A stretch of 64,000 nt of DNA from the NCBI RefSeq assembly GCF_003019035.1, contig NZ_CP027447.1; one strand, given 5' to 3'. Origin of the DNA: Escherichia coli. Lineage in GTDB: Bacteria > Pseudomonadota > Gammaproteobacteria > Enterobacterales > Enterobacteriaceae. This document shows positions 11,154 through 42,599 of the stretch, one piece after another. The translations under genes were made by a program, and so were the position numbers. Below the pieces are notes generated by a model. It worked only from the letters and a program-made list of their open reading frames with translations, was not told where the DNA came from and did not search any database. Numbering within the stretch: the first letter of the stretch is position 1; each line of letters starts with the position of its first letter.

Positions 11154-12161
11154 TTACTTAATCACCCCATTGCGCCGCAGTTGTTCGGTATCTTTTTTCC
11201 AGCGTTCATTAGCCTGGTTGATATCGTCAATTTTCATCAAAATCGCGACTTTTTTACTGTTTATTTCTGAAACTTTCATCGTTAACGGATATTGCCCTTT
11301 TTCGAGCGTTATCCAGTCATCCTGCAATTTACGGCTAAGTTTTTGTGATTGCAGAAAAGTCTGTCGCCGTTGTTCGTTGATATCGAAATCTCGCTTCTGC
11401 TGAATCGGCACTTCATAACACTCTTCACTCTGTTTATGGCATGCCGCAATCGCCGGTTGATAAACCTCTTTGTCATATTTAACCGCGAACGCCTCGCTAT
11501 CGTTCTGTTTATTAAACTCATCACGCTGTTGGTGAATTTTTTTAAAGGCGTCTTCGCGGGTCATTTGCTTACCGTTTGCATCTTTTCCCCAATATGCATC
11601 CGCTGCTTTCTGCGCCGCCACCATTTGCTTATCAAGCGCTTTCACTTCCTTTTCCAGCGCAGGAATCGAGTTCTTCTGGGTATTCAACGCAGTCTCAAGC
11701 TGACTAAAGCGATAATTGAAATCTTCGCTATTCACGATCAGATATTTATTATTCGTTTTGATATCGTCGACCACCCGCCCACGATCGCTGGCTGCCGCCT
11801 GAAAAGAGTAAAAGTTCACCGACCAGCCAGACGCGGGCGTTCCTTTACTGGTTAACATCGCCGAGAATTTTACCGGTTTATCTTTCGTCCAGGTCTGTTC
11901 GAGCAGTTCGTAATCTGCCAACTGACCGACCCAGGTATAGAGATCGTCACTGGAAGAGACATCGCCTTCCGCTGACCAGGTGGCCTGATTACCCTTAGCA
12001 TCAAGATTTTTTAAGGTGATGGCATCAAGCTTGAGAATGCCGTGATACTGCTTTTTGAATTGATCTTTTAAGATATTTTCAGTTGGCGGTTCGCCATCTG
12101 CCCAGACATTACCAGTCATCAACATAAGCAGCGCCGTGCCAACAATCCATTGCTTTTTCAC
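11154..12161 (-). CDS. yggM: Exported protein YggM (DUF1202)
   Basis: 335-aa ORF with signal peptide; conserved neighbour of ansB. Confidence 0.7.
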   Translation of the reverse strand: MKKQWIVGTALLMLMTGNVWADGEPPTENILKDQFKKQYHGILKLDAITLKNLDAKGNQATWSAEGDVSSSDDLYTWVGQLADYELLEQTWTKDKPVKFSAMLTSKGTPASGWSVNFYSFQAAASDRGRVVDDIKTNNKYLIVNSEDFNYRFSQLETALNTQKNSIPALEKEVKALDKQMVAAQKAADAYWGKDANGKQMTREDAFKKIHQQRDEFNKQNDSEAFAVKYDKEVYQPAIAACHKQSEECYEVPIQQKRDFDINEQRRQTFLQSQKLSRKLQDDWITLEKGQYPLTMKVSEINSKKVAILMKIDDINQANERWKKDTEQLRRNGVIK

Positions 12162-19575: not shown

Positions 19576-19610
19576 GAAAAACGGGTCGCCAGAAGGTGAC
19601 CCGTTTTTTT
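19576..19610. terminator. Bidirectional rho-independent terminator between convergent nupG and speC
   Basis: aaaaacgggtcgccagaaggtgacccgttttttttt: hairpin flanked by an A-run and a T-run. Confidence 0.65.
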
Positions 19611-19615
19611 TATTC

Positions 19616-32330: not shown

Positions 32331-33092
32331 TTATTTAAAATTCTGATTGTATCTATCAATAAGTATCTCATCATTACATAAATACGTATCAACAAATGAT
32401 TCTATACGAGAAACTGAAATACGCTCAGATGTATCATTAGAACCGTGATTCATAATATAGCAAACAACTGGAGTCTTCATAGCTAATACACTTCTTCCGA
32501 ATGCCAATGAAGATTCTGGATATTTTGTATGGTCTTTTAGTGAAAATAGAAATGTCCCTTTCTCTTCCTGATTTGAACAATCCTTGGCATCTAACTTAGA
32601 TATAAAACAACTACCACAATTTTTATAGAATATCTTTGTAACTCCATCAAGGTAAGCGATCTTCTCCCTGCGGGCATCAAACACATAACCTGTATAAAAT
32701 GCCAGATCATCAGCATCAGGATTTCGGGAAAACATATATTCTACTTGATAAGTGAAATCTTTGGATACCAGATCATCTGCATCAATAAACATGAAATAGT
32801 CACCAACTTTTGCAGTTTCGAGTATTTTTCGACGCGCGACATTTTTTTTTGATGCTTTGTCTGCCATGTAACCATTTTTATCTTCCGGGACGGGATGCCA
32901 GACTTTGATAAACTCAGTCCGTGGATTCTGATATCCACTTATAAACTCAGGAATGTCATGACATGCAACGACAATGCGATAGTCGCCACCCGCCCCCTCA
33001 ATTGACTTGATTGTAGCTTCCAGTCGAACGCAAACTTCATTCCAATCGTTAGAAGTCTGTTTTGCCCTGAGTGGGATTGCATAATGAAACAT
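32331..33092 (-). CDS. Putative glycosyltransferase or capsule-modifying enzyme (DxD motif, FIDADD)
   Basis: 253-aa ORF, AT-rich, between kpsS and kpsT; DADD motif suggests nucleotide-sugar transferase; function inferred only. Confidence 0.45.
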   Translation of the reverse strand: MFHYAIPLRAKQTSNDWNEVCVRLEATIKSIEGAGGDYRIVVACHDIPEFISGYQNPRTEFIKVWHPVPEDKNGYMADKASKKNVARRKILETAKVGDYFMFIDADDLVSKDFTYQVEYMFSRNPDADDLAFYTGYVFDARREKIAYLDGVTKIFYKNCGSCFISKLDAKDCSNQEEKGTFLFSLKDHTKYPESSLAFGRSVLAMKTPVVCYIMNHGSNDTSERISVSRIESFVDTYLCNDEILIDRYNQNFK

Positions 33093-33171: not shown

Positions 33172-33837
33172 CTAGGTAATATTCTCTTCTTCAGTGTATT
33201 TTTTTATGGCCTGTTCAACATCGTCATAATAATGAATAGCATTATCTCTACCCAAAAAAAGCGCAACATCACAGTATTCTTTTAATGAGTTAAGGCTGTG
33301 CGAAACCATAACAAAATTAGATTCAGAACGCCTAGCTTTAAATATTTTTGCACATTTCTCTCTAAATCGAGCATCACCAACCGCGGTAATTTCATCGACC
33401 AAATAGTAATCAAATTTGAACGCCATGCTTAATCCAAATCCTAGACGAGATCGCATCCCTGATGAATAAGACTTGATCGGCATATCAAAATATGTACCTA
33501 ATTCCGAAAATTCTTCTACAAAATTAATTTTTTCTTTAAGATCTTTTTTATCTGCATATAAACGCGCTACAAACTTTACATTTTCCCTTCCAGTCAGACT
33601 TCCTTGAAAACCACCAGAAATTCCAACAGGCCAAGAAATAGTTTTGTTTGTATAAACGGCCCCCTTGTCTGGTCTATCTATACCACCTATTATACGAAGA
33701 AGAGTGGATTTACCTGCTCCATTACGTCCAAGTAGCGCAATACTTTTACCACTTGGTAATTCAACATTTAAATCTTTAAATACATAATGTCGTCCTTGTG
33801 GTGTGAGATATGATTTAGTTAAGTTTTTAATTATGAT
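33172..33837 (-). CDS. kpsT: Capsule ABC exporter ATP-binding protein
   Basis: ORF 33172..33897; Walker A GRNGAGKST, ABC signature YSSGMRSRL, Walker B YYLVDE; likely start at MIIIKNLTKSY. Confidence 0.8.
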   Translation of the reverse strand: MIIKNLTKSYLTPQGRHYVFKDLNVELPSGKSIALLGRNGAGKSTLLRIIGGIDRPDKGAVYTNKTISWPVGISGGFQGSLTGRENVKFVARLYADKKDLKEKINFVEEFSELGTYFDMPIKSYSSGMRSRLGFGLSMAFKFDYYLVDEITAVGDARFREKCAKIFKARRSESNFVMVSHSLNSLKEYCDVALFLGRDNAIHYYDDVEQAIKKYTEEENIT

Positions 33838-34035
33838 CATAAAGTTAATAACACCTTGTGTATTGCTATACAATATAGGAACTCCGCATCTACCCAAGCA
33901 GTGATAAAAATAGGCCCATTATAAATGTTTTATAAATTTTAATTATAGGGAAACACATTAGAATGGGCCATGTAAATTATCGATACATCATCATAATTAA
34001 CAGTTTGGGCGTCATGACTCCCTTTAATTATACAA

Positions 34036-36798
34036 CTATATAAAAGCAATTTCTTTACTAAATCCTTTTTTAATAATTTTACAATTTTTCAAGTAATCAT
34101 CGTCTTCGATCCTCCATGTATGAGAATTCGTATTTCCATAACGCATTTGAATAAAGTTATATTTATCTGATGAGTAAATAATGAAGCCATTTTTCTTGCA
34201 TTCTTTGAGGAAATTAGTGTCTTCACCACGGTTTATGCATTCAAACTTAATTTTTTCAAAAACCTCTTTTCTAATTACTAAACTTCCTCCTGAAATGAAA
34301 TCAGAATAACGATTATCTTTTCCTGGTTGCTTAACTGCCATGATGTCTTTAGATTCTACATAGCAAAAATAAGAATCTTTGCCTACAATGTCGGCACCAC
34401 TAAATTTAAAAGCTTGCAAAGCGTCTAATAAATAGTTATCACCATAAAAATCATCATCATCCATCTTGGCAAGATAATCTCCTGAGGCATGAGTAACACC
34501 ATAATTAAGACACTCACCAAGAGTTATATCCTGTGGTAACTGATATACTTTAACATTAGGCATTCCATTTATCTTGTTTTTAACCACATTTATATCAAAA
34601 CTATCATTATTTAATATAAGTAATAACTCTTTATTCACGTGAGATTGTCGATGATAATTATCAAGCATCATATCAATATTATTGGGACGATTAGTACACA
34701 TAATTATTGATACTTTATCATCTTGAATGACCTTATTTTTAACTCCTATAGTCTTTAGAATCTGCTCAAAACGTTGTTGATACGAATGATACCGAATACA
34801 ATGACGAGCGGCCAAATGTCCTAAACGTTCACGTTCAATATCAGACTCAAGCAACCGTTGAACAATAGTTTTCGCTTCGAGTTTGTCTTTAACAATATGT
34901 ACATGTTCACCAAGCATAGCTTTCATACCATCAGAATGAGTTGATACAACTGGTGTACCGCAAGCCAAAATTTCGAAAACCCGACGGGAGAACATAGTTG
35001 GTGAGTCCTGAACAGTGTTGATATTCAGGAATAGCTTGTATTGTCTATAAGCAGTGAGCATCTGTTCATAGTCAAGTGAACCAACTATAAATGGTTGGTA
35101 TTTTTCAGGAAAGATTCGTGATTCTCTATGTTTGGTTGCATGCAGCATTCGGTCGTATATATGCAATTCACGATGTGCTGTTCCATCAAGGACAATTTCT
35201 GTTTGTGCTCGACGAGTATCATGTCCATTATTATACCAACTACCGGCAAAACATACTTCGTAAACTGGAAGTTTTTTATTCTTATCACGAATTGGGTTGT
35301 GGATAGCTGGTTGTGCCGCAAAAGGAAGTGCGTATACTCTATTATGTCCAACACGAGACTTGTATTTTTCTAAGATATTCCCATCAGTTGTGAATATATA
35401 GTCACAATCAGCTGCAACATCAATAAAGACTTCGTAGTTGGTTGGATCCTCCTTATTCCAAAATACTACAGGAATATTCTTGGATTGACAGTATTTGATA
35501 ACTTTGCGAAGTGGATCACCCAAATGTTTTTTATAACTCACCATGGTATATGTCCACTCACCATTATTACCATTCCAAGCTGATTCAAGAAATAACATTA
35601 CTGGGTGTGATTCGTCGATCTCTGATTTCCAATTTTGCTTGGTTAACGGAATAAAGTTTGCCTCATAGCGAAAGCATTCATAAGTAAACTTATCACAGAT
35701 CGTTACAACATTGATATGCTGATTTCGCAAGTGTGCATGTGATTCAAAGACAGGCCAACTAATCTCATTATCATGTTTTACCTCATTATAAACACCAACA
35801 CTTTCAAGCAATTGCTTCTTGACACGACAGTTAAGAGGGGGGTGATCAAATTTGCCTTTACGCTTAGCCGCACGAATCTTTATTAGCTTTTGAGGCAAGG
35901 AAAGAAAACCTTTCAGGCTGCTACGTTTAGTCTCTACCATAGTTTTGCCTAAACGATAGTATAAAGACCTTTCTAGTTTCTGCTTCTCGTAGAGAGCTGT
36001 AGCAAGCTTGTCTTTAAGCTCGTCAATTTTTTGCTTTTGTATTTGTGGTGATTCTGGTAATGAGAGAATTCGCGTCTCGAAAGCTTTTGTCAGCGTTTTT
36101 GCTTTCACTTCAAAGTGTCGTATAATTTCCTCATGGCTTTGGCAATTATCAAGCCTTATTGCATTCACGGGTAAAGTTTCTTCAATGTAGAGTTTAATAG
36201 GTTCAATACGAAGTGAACCTTGCCCTTTAAAACGTAATGCCATACTAAAGTAACGCGCATCAGGCATTGTATCGAATTCAATATGATTAATACCGTTATA
36301 AATAAGTTGATATTTGTGAGTAATTCTTTTATTTTCATCATACTGGATAATAAAAATTGCACATTCAGGTCGATTCTCTCCATATGATGTATTTAATACT
36401 AATCGATACTTGAATCCACCATTGATACGCCAGGAGTTTTTGTCCAATGGCAACCCATTAATATTCATACTGCCAGTTTGTAAATAAAAAGAGTCTCCAT
36501 TTATCAAATCCATTTCTACAAACAAACTTCCATCTGACTCTATATGCAAATGCTTATTACGACTATTATCAGCAGGTAATAACCATTCGGTCGATGATTC
36601 TATATTAGAAAGACCATTGAAAGGTAAAAACGGATAGTTTTGCTCTTTCCATTCTATTTTATTGGCCTTACGTGATAATAGACGAAAAAGTTTTTCGAAA
36701 TGACTATCATAGATTGAAAATGCCACCTGAAGTTGGTTAATTTCATCCCCAGTGTGTAATTTATTTTTTACTTTTTTCTTAGTAAGACGATTTGACAT
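34036..36798 (-). CDS. Large three-domain putative capsule polymerase: N-terminal unknown domain, central CgeB-like (GT1-fold) domain, C-terminal GT2 domain
   Basis: 920-aa ORF; central region paralogous to the 329-aa ORF at 39371..40360 (shared ...VFWNKEDP...FAAQP...SRRVFE...G.P... pattern); C-terminus has GT2 hallmarks (VSIIMCTNRP, DDDDF). Confidence 0.6.
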   Translation of the reverse strand: MSNRLTKKKVKNKLHTGDEINQLQVAFSIYDSHFEKLFRLLSRKANKIEWKEQNYPFLPFNGLSNIESSTEWLLPADNSRNKHLHIESDGSLFVEMDLINGDSFYLQTGSMNINGLPLDKNSWRINGGFKYRLVLNTSYGENRPECAIFIIQYDENKRITHKYQLIYNGINHIEFDTMPDARYFSMALRFKGQGSLRIEPIKLYIEETLPVNAIRLDNCQSHEEIIRHFEVKAKTLTKAFETRILSLPESPQIQKQKIDELKDKLATALYEKQKLERSLYYRLGKTMVETKRSSLKGFLSLPQKLIKIRAAKRKGKFDHPPLNCRVKKQLLESVGVYNEVKHDNEISWPVFESHAHLRNQHINVVTICDKFTYECFRYEANFIPLTKQNWKSEIDESHPVMLFLESAWNGNNGEWTYTMVSYKKHLGDPLRKVIKYCQSKNIPVVFWNKEDPTNYEVFIDVAADCDYIFTTDGNILEKYKSRVGHNRVYALPFAAQPAIHNPIRDKNKKLPVYEVCFAGSWYNNGHDTRRAQTEIVLDGTAHRELHIYDRMLHATKHRESRIFPEKYQPFIVGSLDYEQMLTAYRQYKLFLNINTVQDSPTMFSRRVFEILACGTPVVSTHSDGMKAMLGEHVHIVKDKLEAKTIVQRLLESDIERERLGHLAARHCIRYHSYQQRFEQILKTIGVKNKVIQDDKVSIIMCTNRPNNIDMMLDNYHRQSHVNKELLLILNNDSFDINVVKNKINGMPNVKVYQLPQDITLGECLNYGVTHASGDYLAKMDDDDFYGDNYLLDALQAFKFSGADIVGKDSYFCYVESKDIMAVKQPGKDNRYSDFISGGSLVIRKEVFEKIKFECINRGEDTNFLKECKKNGFIIYSSDKYNFIQMRYGNTNSHTWRIEDDDYLKNCKIIKKGFSKEIAFI

Positions 36799-39370: not shown

Positions 39371-40360
39371 CTAATAAAGTTCAAAATCCCGATTCATCTG
39401 CTGAAGGCGATGATGCCAGGTATGTTGAGATAATACAATTTCTTTTGCGCGTTCCCCCAAGACAGTTCTTTTATTTATGTCTTTTTGCAATTCCAAACAC
39501 CATTCTCGCGCGGATTGACCATTCGCAATTGAAATAATACTATCCTCAAATATACGATTCATAGCTATTGATGGACTGCTGATTATAGAACACCCTGAAG
39601 CACCTAATTCAAAAACCCTCCGTGAAAGCATTGTTGTAGATTTTCTAATTGTATTAAAATTTAGATAGATTTGATATTGAGTGTATGCCTGTGCAACTAA
39701 ATTTAAAGGAATTGATGGTCGACAATATACATGTAAATCATTTGGATAACTACAGTTATTTTTTTTATTCCAAAATCGATCATAAATAACCAACCCACAT
39801 CTTGAAAGTGAGTGTAGAACATCATATTGCATTTGGCTCCTTTCACTAAACTGATTACCATAGTAGCCACCAAAAAATGCAACACCATATTTCCGCTTTA
39901 CTTGAGGAACAGACTTATACCAATGAGGTTGCGCTGCAAACATCAGTACACCTACTGACTGGCACCTGTGGTCTAGTAATGAGTCATATCGATTAATTGA
40001 ATCCGCGTCTGTTGTATATATTATATCAAAAAAAGAAGCTGAATCAGAAAACCTTTCAAAATGGAATGGATCTTCTTTATTCCAAAATACAGTTTTTATT
40101 TTTTTTCTTTTGCAATATTCAACTATTTTCTTTAATTCATTGTTATTATCTGGTTTGTTTTCATAACTTGCTATTTTACCTTGCCAGCTATTCCTATATC
40201 CTCTCCAAGCAGATTCAACAAACAAAAAATCAGGTTTAAACAAGCGTAATTTCCAACGCCAATCAAAGGGAGTTAAAGGCAAAATATCTGCATCTGGAGC
40301 CAAACCATATGTCGTAAACTCATCTGCGATTAATGCAATACAAGGTTTTTTTTTCTTCAA
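39371..40360 (-). CDS. CgeB-like glycosyltransferase-fold protein
   Basis: 329-aa ORF paralogous to the central domain of the 920-aa protein; apparent TTG start followed by an A9 tract. Confidence 0.5.
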   Translation of the reverse strand: MKKKKPCIALIADEFTTYGLAPDADILPLTPFDWRWKLRLFKPDFLFVESAWRGYRNSWQGKIASYENKPDNNNELKKIVEYCKRKKIKTVFWNKEDPFHFERFSDSASFFDIIYTTDADSINRYDSLLDHRCQSVGVLMFAAQPHWYKSVPQVKRKYGVAFFGGYYGNQFSERSQMQYDVLHSLSRCGLVIYDRFWNKKNNCSYPNDLHVYCRPSIPLNLVAQAYTQYQIYLNFNTIRKSTTMLSRRVFELGASGCSIISSPSIAMNRIFEDSIISIANGQSAREWCLELQKDINKRTVLGERAKEIVLSQHTWHHRLQQMNRDFELY

Positions 40361-40729: not shown

Positions 40730-41728
40730 TTATATACCTAAAATATATTTAACCTTCCTGTACATTGTATCATAACGATCTACATGGCCAGGTTTATTAT
40801 CAAAGTATATGCTATAATCTCGAATATCATCCCCCCTATCAATACATCGTTGTATAAATGATAAAAGCAATGTTGTGTCGTAATGGCATTCATCACTAAT
40901 GGCGTTTTTATATTTATCTCTAAAAATACGATAATTCTCTTCTCTTGCACTATAATAACTATCATTGTGCTTTTTGTCATGATATAAATGAAGAGCTAAA
41001 TCTTTCTGAAGCAATATATCTAAACAATACTCTCCCAAATATTTTCTGAACCCAGTAGTAAATAACGGAGAATGACATGGTTTATCTATCAAAAAATCAG
41101 ATTTTAGTTTTGACAAAAAGTGATGGTTATATAAACGTATCAAAAAATCAAAATCTTCATACCCATGACCTTGAAAGCTTTCATCAAACCCATGTATTTT
41201 TTTATAGCTTTCTGACTTCAAAATTGTAATAGAGGAGGGACTTGCTAAATGTAAAAACTCTTTTCTTGAAAAATCAAAATATCTTTTTTTTAATAACTCT
41301 ACTGATATCTTTTTTTTAATTAATATGTGCGTCCCATATTTTGTCAAATATAAACACGGTAAAATATAGAATGGTTTTACTCCTTTTTGTATTTTATTTT
41401 TATATTTTTCGAATAAAACAACATCAGGATATATATCCACATCAAGCAATATGATAAATTCAGTATCAACTAATTTGAATGCAAAATTTCTTAGCAATGA
41501 AGTATTTATGTATTTATAACTACAATCGTATGAATTGACAATAACATGGTTATATTCACTCAAGGCTTCTATAAATACATGATCGTATTTAGTAAAGCGA
41601 TTTCCGTGACCAAATATAATTTTAAAATTATTTTCCCTAGTTGCTTCGGCAATACTAATTGCTTTCTGAATAATATCTTTAGGTCTGCGTTTTAGGTCTA
41701 TTGGGATTATAGCGGTTAACATTTTCAA
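40730..41728 (-). CDS. Putative GT2-family glycosyltransferase
   Basis: 332-aa ORF with AIIPI...LLDVDIYP and GYEDFDF motifs; extremely AT-rich. Confidence 0.45.
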   Translation of the reverse strand: MKMLTAIIPIDLKRRPKDIIQKAISIAEATRENNFKIIFGHGNRFTKYDHVFIEALSEYNHVIVNSYDCSYKYINTSLLRNFAFKLVDTEFIILLDVDIYPDVVLFEKYKNKIQKGVKPFYILPCLYLTKYGTHILIKKKISVELLKKRYFDFSRKEFLHLASPSSITILKSESYKKIHGFDESFQGHGYEDFDFLIRLYNHHFLSKLKSDFLIDKPCHSPLFTTGFRKYLGEYCLDILLQKDLALHLYHDKKHNDSYYSAREENYRIFRDKYKNAISDECHYDTTLLLSFIQRCIDRGDDIRDYSIYFDNKPGHVDRYDTMYRKVKYILGI

Positions 41729-41822: not shown

Positions 41823-42599
41823 TCATGATGTCAGCATTGCCTCTTCACGCGTTCGGTATAACGCCAGACCGATGAACAGGGTGACCAGAGTGAACATTGC
41901 AAGGTAGTTTAGACTCACGCCTTCGCTGATATAGCCAGGCATAACTGCCTCGCGGCTTAACTCTACGACATGCACTAATGGATTCCAGAGTAGATATGAC
42001 CAGTATTGCTTCGGAATCGAGTGTAGAGGGAACATGATGCAGGAGATGAAATACAGCGGCTTAAGCAGTATCGGCAGGACCTTTTGCATTTCAGGGAAAG
42101 TCTTACCAACGACCATGAATATTAAGCCAACGCCACATGAAAGAATGATTAACAAACTCCAGGTAAGCACAAGTTGTAAAAAGTTTGTTATTTCGAAATA
42201 TTCGCCTGCCATCCAGACAATAAGCATAAGCAATATATAAACAGCAACATAAATCAGTGTCTCAAGCAATGCACGCGCAATGATCGTATCGATGGGTTTT
42301 ACTGGTCGATAATTAAACAGCCCCTGATTCGCTTCAATAGCACCTACAGAACGATTGCTGATACTGCTAAAGATAAAAAAGGGAATCAGGCCATTAAGTA
42401 AAAACACCGGGAATGAGATGTCTGGCATCGTGCGGTGCATAATGTAACCAAAAATGCCCAACAGTATCAGCAAATGCGCAGAGGGTTCGAGAATCGCCCA
42501 CAGATATCCCAGACGGAACTTACCAAAGCGTGTTCGTATTTCTCGTAGAAATAATGCCTCTACGGTGACTTTCTGGACTTCAAATCCACTTCTTGCCAT
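41823..42599 (-). CDS. kpsM: Capsule ABC exporter permease
   Basis: ORF 41823..42659; start MARSGFEVQKVTVEALFLREIRTRFGK; ABC-2 permease. Confidence 0.85.
   Translation of the reverse strand: MARSGFEVQKVTVEALFLREIRTRFGKFRLGYLWAILEPSAHLLILLGIFGYIMHRTMPDISFPVFLLNGLIPFFIFSSISNRSVGAIEANQGLFNYRPVKPIDTIIARALLETLIYVAVYILLMLIVWMAGEYFEITNFLQLVLTWSLLIILSCGVGLIFMVVGKTFPEMQKVLPILLKPLYFISCIMFPLHSIPKQYWSYLLWNPLVHVVELSREAVMPGYISEGVSLNYLAMFTLVTLFIGLALYRTREEAMLTS

Follow-up and report, generated by a model that had tools for sequence, protein, structure and literature searches.

The siaD site of the meningococcus belongs to a species-wide repertoire of contingency loci and switches at high rates. In Escherichia coli, a comparable event is described for the group 3 capsule type K96, in which slippage of an A7 run in kpsC to A6 causes a reversible loss of capsule, as shown by experiment, and the same allele is found in natural isolates (PMC13410964). 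That study (mSphere, 2026) raises the question of whether homopolymers inactivate or phase-vary the capsule genes of group 2 as well. Two further systems are cited in it and are taken here as they are summarised there: siaD of Neisseria meningitidis, where a poly-C homopolymer in a capsule transferase/polymerase gene shifts the frame (Hammerschmidt et al. 1996), and cap8E/tts of Streptococcus pneumoniae, where misalignment of short repeats produces frame-shifting indels of tens of bases in the form of precisely reverting duplications (Waite et al. 2003). K2a and K2ab have also been reported to differ by a naturally occurring frameshift in one of the K-specific genes of a group 2 locus of E. 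coli; in the parts of PMC13171606 drawn on here, it lies in an acetyltransferase ORF and changes the phenotype by altering decoration rather than synthesis, and those parts give no homopolymer mechanism for it.

Here we describe a slippage-prone site in a group 2A capsule locus. The window that was analysed is a 64,000-nucleotide stretch of an E. coli genome (GCF_003019035.1, contig NZ_CP027447.1), and the site consists of two A8 runs in a predicted glycosyltransferase gene. As in K96 kpsC, a poly-A run in a kps-locus gene is subject to a single-base slip that causes a frameshift and recurs in natural isolates, with loss of capsule as the probable consequence. Unlike kpsC, which is a conserved gene of a group 3 locus, the gene in question encodes a K-type-associated GT-A transferase of the group 2A K7/K106 locus, and there are two A8 runs together with a repeat-mediated 26-bp deletion, all known from sequences alone. 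The position of a frame-shifting homopolymer in a capsule transferase gene recalls siaD; however, there is no over-representation of tracts here and no rate of the siaD kind was seen. The deletion is similar to the events in cap8E/tts in its size, its effect on the frame and its dependence on short-repeat misalignment, but only the deletion was found, which slippage cannot revert, whereas the pneumococcal duplications revert precisely according to the summary mentioned above. What K2a/K2ab and the present case have in common is that a K-specific gene of a group 2 locus is frameshifted in nature. The K7/K106 site is a fresh example of an already known type of slippage in capsule genes. The A8 pair is probably a by-product of lysine coding that forms an ordinary slippage-prone site and offers a low-frequency, stochastic ON-to-OFF route for the capsule, rather than a tuned contingency locus.

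The window contains an E. coli kps capsule locus adjoining the gsp type II secretion genes, with its K-specific, AT-rich part at about 32.3–41.8 kb on the minus strand. The gene set includes wecB, wecC, a 920-aa dual glycosyltransferase (GT), a 329-aa CgeB-like GT, a 330-aa GT and a 253-aa GT-A; with kpsFEDUCS, and with kpsM/kpsT next to the gsp operon, this is the gene content of a group 2A kps locus. The locus matches the K7/K106 pair of the kTYPr catalogue, as far as the catalogue is represented in the parts of PMC13171606 used here, and the match is one of gene lengths and domain coordinates rather than of the catalogue sequences themselves: the entries K106_7 (253 aa), K106_9 (920 aa), K106_12 (329 aa) and K106_13 (330 aa, with a Pfam match at residues 4–273) all have counterparts of equal length. 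K7-type loci have a DUF6270 gene in place of the 253-aa GT-A, and because the latter corresponds to K106_7, the window is by gene content the K106 form. Instead of being adjacent, kpsT (33172–33897) and kpsM (41823–42599) are about 8 kb apart with K-specific genes between them, a type of rearrangement that the same parts of the catalogue paper list for K7 and several other K types (PMC13171606). Set against a majority consensus of the loci fetched, of which nearly all are K7-type, the window (noted at 34036–36798) has about 250 substitutions over 8.7 kb; nonetheless, 53 of the 54 full-length copies of the 330-aa GT gene have at least 99.6% identity to that of the window. In the portion of the catalogue consulted, the 920-aa GTs of K7 and K106 are 90.8% identical and the remaining shared genes 100% identical (PMC13171606). 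Taken together, the substitution-rich 8.7 kb and the near-identical 330-aa GT gene make the K7/K106 locus appear mosaic.

The gene that carries the two runs (K7_13/K106_13 in the catalogue) is at 40730..41722 on the minus strand, within an ORF that spans 40730..41728 on that strand; RefSeq places its start at the ATG at 41722 and names the product a 'galactosyltransferase-related protein'. Its G+C content is 28%. The 330-aa product is predicted to be a GT-A-fold, GT2-like glycosyltransferase. Residues 4–273 match Pfam family PF10111 (Glyco_tranf_2_2) with E=1.1e-18 and 68.2 bits against a cut-off of 27.3, there is a weak second match to PF02709, and an AlphaFold2 model based on 40 homologues has a GT-A fold with a mean pLDDT of 89.4. 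The GT2-like label, which the original prediction had assigned from the sequence, is thus borne out by the PF10111 match and by the fold of the model. The best PDB matches of the model are K4CP (K4 chondroitin polymerase), RmlT, LARGE1, TarP and SpsA; a sequence search of solved structures gave no solved or characterised relative, and no NCBIfam model matched. Both aspartates of the DxD motif, D94 and D96, are invariant among the 40 homologues. The model places the first lysine cluster after helix 128–135 and the second inside helix 141–149.

Related genes are not confined to this pair of capsule types. K7_13 and K106_13 are 100% identical in the supplementary table of PMC13171606, and among the entries consulted there K116_9 has about 62% identity to K7_13, and K52_13 about 63% to K116_9. 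Relatives that adjoin kpsM in other K types are 62–71% identical, and copies with 45–57% identity occur in Aeromonas, Yersinia, Pantoea, Rahnella and Pseudomonas. The gene had been called serotype-specific, a description that holds in so far as it is K-type-associated, but not in the strict sense, since it is common to K7 and K106 and has relatives in other K types and genera. The segments MLTAIIPIDL, FSRKEFLHLASPSS, GHGYEDFDF and FDNKPGHIDR are strongly conserved among K types whose polymers differ, and also between genera, and this conservation suggests that the role of the enzyme is not tied to the repeat unit. The enzyme was also considered as a 'transition transferase', the class that links poly-Kdo to the polymer (PMC11666461), and no link was established.

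On the given strand the two runs are T8, that is, A8 in the coding sense. Tract A (41310..41317, minus strand) occupies nt 406–413 of the CDS in the codons ATT AAA AAA AAG (I135 K136 K137 K138), and tract B (41284..41291, minus strand) occupies nt 432–439 in TTA AAA AAA AGA (L144 K145 K146 R147). Both are inside the CDS of the 330-aa GT and are separated by 18 nt; the sequence and the run list confirm the pair of T8 runs in lysine clusters as originally predicted. Each run is the core of one copy of a 16-nt perfect direct repeat, ATATCTTTTTTTTAAT, of which copy 1 (41305..41320) contains tract A and copy 2 (41279..41294) contains tract B. The copies are offset by 26 nt and are read in two different reading frames. 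The repeat is longer than any close repeat found in shuffled sequences, for which the maxima were 15 nt in 400 synonymous shuffles and 13 nt in 400 codon-order shuffles. As is expected for a contingency locus, a change of one nucleotide in either direction at either tract shifts the frame, with a stop at codon 140, 149 or 158.

It had been proposed that homopolymers are enriched in the serotype-specific genes. When the protein and the codon usage were kept in the shuffles, however, the gene had 2 A/T runs of at least 8 nt against 1.03 expected (P=0.19), and the eight locus genes had 6 against 4.58 (P=0.26), so that the tracts are not over-represented beyond coding need, as would be looked for in a contingency locus. 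Dinucleotide shuffles gave a marginal excess (2 observed against 0.40 for the gene, P=0.055; 6 against 3.06 for region 2, P=0.08). The run count is therefore as expected given protein and codon usage, and the proposed enrichment does not hold. Lysine is encoded by AAA and AAG in a ratio of 30:4 in the 330-aa GT gene, and the A8 runs result from clustered lysines with AT-biased codon choice, given that their number is at the synonymous expectation. A coding A8/T8 control in a core gene was not available in the window, in which the sole run of at least 8 nt outside region 2 (19604–19611) is intergenic, flanked by a plus-strand ORF of 434 aa and a minus-strand ORF of 739 aa.

Length variation was surveyed first of all in complete genomes. 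Among 5426 complete E. coli genomes, 55 match the gene and 54 have a full-length copy, with the expected span of 999 nt in 52 of the 54. The two exceptions map exactly onto the tracts. Strain CE0007a has A7 at tract A, with all ten other tracts checked at reference length, and strain HM670 has an exact deletion of 26 bp between the two copies of the 16-nt repeat; both strains are annotated with two fragments of the gene. In E. coli XH993 the match (positions 10001–11283 of its fetched locus) is limited to the last 197 nt of the gene, beside an IS1 element, in keeping with an IS1-bounded deletion of most of the gene; this strain is without kpsM and the gsp operon, and gss follows directly. In the 55 complete genomes with a match to the gene, the repeat and tracts thus account for 2 of 3 disruptions, and it is on these that the site can be called a hotspot relative to the rest of the gene. 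Other loci of the set have probable capsule-inactivating lesions elsewhere: the CgeB-like gene has a 1-nt deletion in CUVET21-1780, which was rejected as a homopolymer slip because of its position, and two shortened runs in FCI5, and in KE51 wecC is matched only in part, the annotation at that point being a shorter 'NAD(P)-binding domain-containing protein'.

The predicted truncated products of every simple event were also looked up by exact sequence among about 15 billion proteins. By sequence background, the product of the −1 change at tract A was found in 11, 14 and 1 contigs, that of the −1 change at tract B in 6 and 11, that of the +1 change at tract A in 1 and 1, and that of the 26-bp deletion in 1 and 2; the product of the +1 change at tract B was found in 1 contig. 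The intact protein was found in at least 1000, 846 and 136 contigs. Because these counts include the same genome from several sources and are partly lower bounds for the intact protein, the resulting frequencies are rough: frameshift alleles make up about 1% or less of gene copies in public assemblies, compared with 2 of 54 in complete genomes. Absent from the same proteins were the products of a 26-bp duplication and of an in-frame double slip (+1 at tract A with −1 at tract B), as well as the tract B −1, tract A +1 and deletion products in the sequence background of the window (Y129).

To control for artefacts, contigs were fetched and eleven homopolymers were measured in each. Other shortened homopolymers were present in 17 of the 20 fetched loci with the −1 allele at tract A, often with fragmented neighbouring genes, and likewise in 8 of the 19 with the −1 allele at tract B. 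Because the same contigs hold many shortened homopolymers, most tract A −1 matches look like uncorrected long-read errors, and the raw frameshift counts therefore overstate the effect. The same signature of shortened homopolymers and fragmented genes runs through whole public series (fetched loci L005, L007, L047–L051 and L059–L067; ERR10496768–ERR10499214), including the 'complete' genomes CP163898–CP165520, in which counts of apparent frameshifts are inflated. CE0007a is the only tract A −1 locus with every other tract at reference length; two further loci (L054 and L056) have seven nucleotides at both tracts A and B and no change in the other tracts covered. In contrast, the −1 allele at tract B is otherwise clean in 11 of 19 loci, far more than at tract A although both runs are A8. 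All other tracts covered, up to nine, are thus at reference length in these eleven loci, in CE0007a, in the three contigs with A9 (two at tract A and one at tract B) and in the two deletion carriers whose comparator tracts were readable. The clean carriers of A7 include SRR14629587, SRR13343667, SRR13802983, ERR4034585, ERR11477884 and GCA_037400995.1 besides CE0007a. An apparent truncation of kpsT in two of the tract B −1 loci (L016 and L017) proved to be a difference in gene calling, with the ORF intact.

The alleles that pass this control are spread over distinct backgrounds. Clean tract B −1 alleles occur on at least four haplotypes, which are 200–425 SNPs per 20 kb apart. The 26-bp deletion is carried by HM670 (also in run SRR7221040) and by GCA_004960195.1, and since 419 SNPs per 20 kb separate the two backgrounds, their sequences indicate that the deletion arose at least twice. 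One tract B −1 locus (L016) is separated by a single SNP per 20 kb from CE0007a, which has the tract A allele, and another (L015) by 39 SNPs per 20 kb from HM670, which has the deletion. Clean alleles on several haplotypes, together with different events in near-identical lineages, mean that the site has been hit repeatedly. Polymorphism of tract length in natural isolates, another property of contingency loci, is hence present even when contigs with other shortened homopolymers are set aside. An absence of length polymorphism had been named as part of the outcome that would refute the proposal, and variants are instead found at both tracts and as the 26-bp deletion. The original prediction had left the choice between AT bias alone and a mutational hotspot: AT-biased lysine coding does explain the number of runs, but AT bias alone does not account for the recurrent alleles, which support a hotspot of low frequency.

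Slippage is not peculiar to tracts A and B but is generic for A8 and A9 runs in the locus. The gene for the CgeB-family GT (39371–40360, minus strand) has an A9 run in codons 2–5 (40346..40354, minus strand), with A8 instead in 5 of the 54 complete genomes. The A9 allele gives a 329-aa ORF that starts from TTG, and the A8 allele, found in 19 contigs, puts an upstream ATG in frame to give a 339-aa ORF (WP_168728535.1), so that either run length leaves an intact ORF with a different start. Two A8 runs in the same gene also vary: that at CDS nt 255 (40099..40106, minus strand) has its −1 product in 10 contigs and its +1 product in 2, and FCI5 has A7 at this position plus A8 at the nearby A9 tract; that at CDS nt 595 (39759..39766, minus strand) has its −1 product in 2 contigs, and its +1 product is absent from the roughly 15 billion proteins. 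The gene for the 253-aa GT-A K106_7 (32331–33092, minus strand) has an A9 run (32842..32850, minus strand) for which the A8 allele, a frameshift that leaves a 116-aa product, is present in at least 21 contigs against about 350 wild-type contigs, and no slip allele of the locus was seen at a higher frequency; 7 of the 8 such loci fetched are otherwise intact draft assemblies, and at least two haplotypes are represented. A paralogue with 71% identity to the 330-aa GT, from another K type (positions 6001–6990 of fetched locus L057), is situated directly after kpsM and before a gene for a 1248-aa TagF-like polymerase. It has A9 at the position of tract B and no run at that of tract A, and its A8 allele occurs in at least 39 contigs, with at least one lineage clean. 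No A7 run changed in length in any sequence in which the other tracts were unchanged. Variation at A8 and A9 but not at A7 fits the exponential rise of indel rates with run length in E. coli (PMC8510543).

A simple mechanism may be envisaged for these alleles. Replication slippage would add or remove one A at either A8 run, and misalignment of the two copies of the 16-nt repeat would remove 26 bp. Each event shifts the frame, with a stop at codon 140–158 of 330. The truncated product keeps the N-terminal half, including D94-x-D96, and loses the invariant segments SRxxFLHxAxPSS (S152–S164) and GHGxEDFDF (G185–F193). Because these segments are downstream of the stops, we infer that the products of 140–158 aa would be inactive, and carriers would then most likely have lost, or not make, the K7/K106 capsule. 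By analogy with the A7/A6 slip in kpsC of K96 (PMC13410964), the +1 and −1 alleles should be able to revert. The alleles may persist since the capsule is dispensable or sometimes costly. On this evidence the site is best described as a modest, ordinary hotspot for capsule loss, with the hotspot reading supported at low frequency.

Alternative interpretations have to be weighed against that of an ordinary slippage-prone site. One is that the tracts are inert, the outcome of AT bias and lysine coding only, and that the length variants are sequencing or assembly errors. Such an explanation is in agreement with the tract count, which fits the expectation from protein and codon usage, and with the shortened homopolymers and fragmented neighbours of most tract A −1 and 8 of 19 tract B −1 contigs, which are typical of uncorrected long reads. 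However, a repeat-bounded deletion of 26 bp is not a homopolymer miscall, and it is present in two unrelated backgrounds and, for HM670, in both the complete genome and a separate run of the lineage. Also at odds with error are the tract B −1 alleles of eleven contigs whose other tracts are all intact and which represent four haplotypes or more, and the slip allele of the A9 run in K106_7, which is present in the early-accession runs SRR488358 and ERR054676 with the neighbouring genes called intact. Artefact explains much of the tract A signal, but not the deletion or the clean tract B alleles on multiple haplotypes, and as a complete account we consider it unlikely. A different proposal is programmed recoding, in which a dnaX-type −1 frameshift or transcriptional slippage at A8 would produce a deliberate 149-aa isoform or partly rescue frameshift alleles. 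An A_AAA_AAG heptamer is in frame at tract A (41310–41318) and conforms to X_XXY_YYZ, and A runs of about 8–9 nt are at the threshold for slippage by RNA polymerase in E. coli. The sequence nevertheless has no stimulatory structure downstream (MFE −9 kcal/mol, z=−0.34) and no Shine-Dalgarno-like element upstream, neither the heptamer nor tract A is conserved in the closest paralogue (71% identical), and the 149-aa fragment is without the invariant C-terminal motifs, all of which makes recoding very improbable.

A further possibility is that the A8 pair and the 16-nt repeat were selected as a reversible ON/OFF switch of the capsule under pressure from phages or the host. This would account for the recurrence of independent OFF alleles, including different events in near-identical lineages, and for a 16-nt repeat longer than any in 800 shuffles; moreover, the tract B position also holds a variable A8/A9 run in the paralogue, and reversible slip-mediated capsule loss in E. 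coli K96 provides a precedent. Against selection, there is no excess of tracts once protein and codon usage are fixed, the paralogue has no tract A, and conservation of the lysines across the family is poor. OFF alleles make up about 1% or less of copies, contractions outnumber expansions, and exact look-up in the roughly 15 billion proteins gave no match to the in-frame double slip or to the 26-bp duplication. In addition, switching at an A8 run in repair-proficient E. coli is expected to be far slower than at classical contingency loci. We therefore think it improbable that the site is an evolved contingency locus. In a broader version, to which we attach little credence, a selected, reversible switch with multiple sites would serve K7/K106 and related K types: slips of one nucleotide would toggle the capsule in response to pressure from phages or the host, transcriptional slippage would partly rescue the A9 alleles, and further states would come from the A9 runs nearby (at the start of the CgeB-like gene and in K106_7). 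If this were true, group 2 capsule loci of E. coli would have multi-site phase variation as in Neisseria and Campylobacter.

Finally, the ordinary slippage-prone site that we favour has consequences for how capsule loci are read from genomes. In extraintestinal E. coli, the host range of phages, resistance to serum and the targeting of vaccines are all governed by capsule type. K-typing in silico reads gene content, and a carrier of a slip allele or of the 26-bp deletion would be typed as K7/K106 and yet is probably acapsular. Counts of capsule pseudogenes need to be controlled for homopolymer errors elsewhere in the same contig, because most database 'frameshifts' at tract A are long-read artefacts. 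With regard to the question raised in the K96 study, that of homopolymer-based inactivation or phase variation in group 2, we suggest that the K7/K106 locus provides a concrete, recurrent example in group 2A, with defined alleles that are open to screening.
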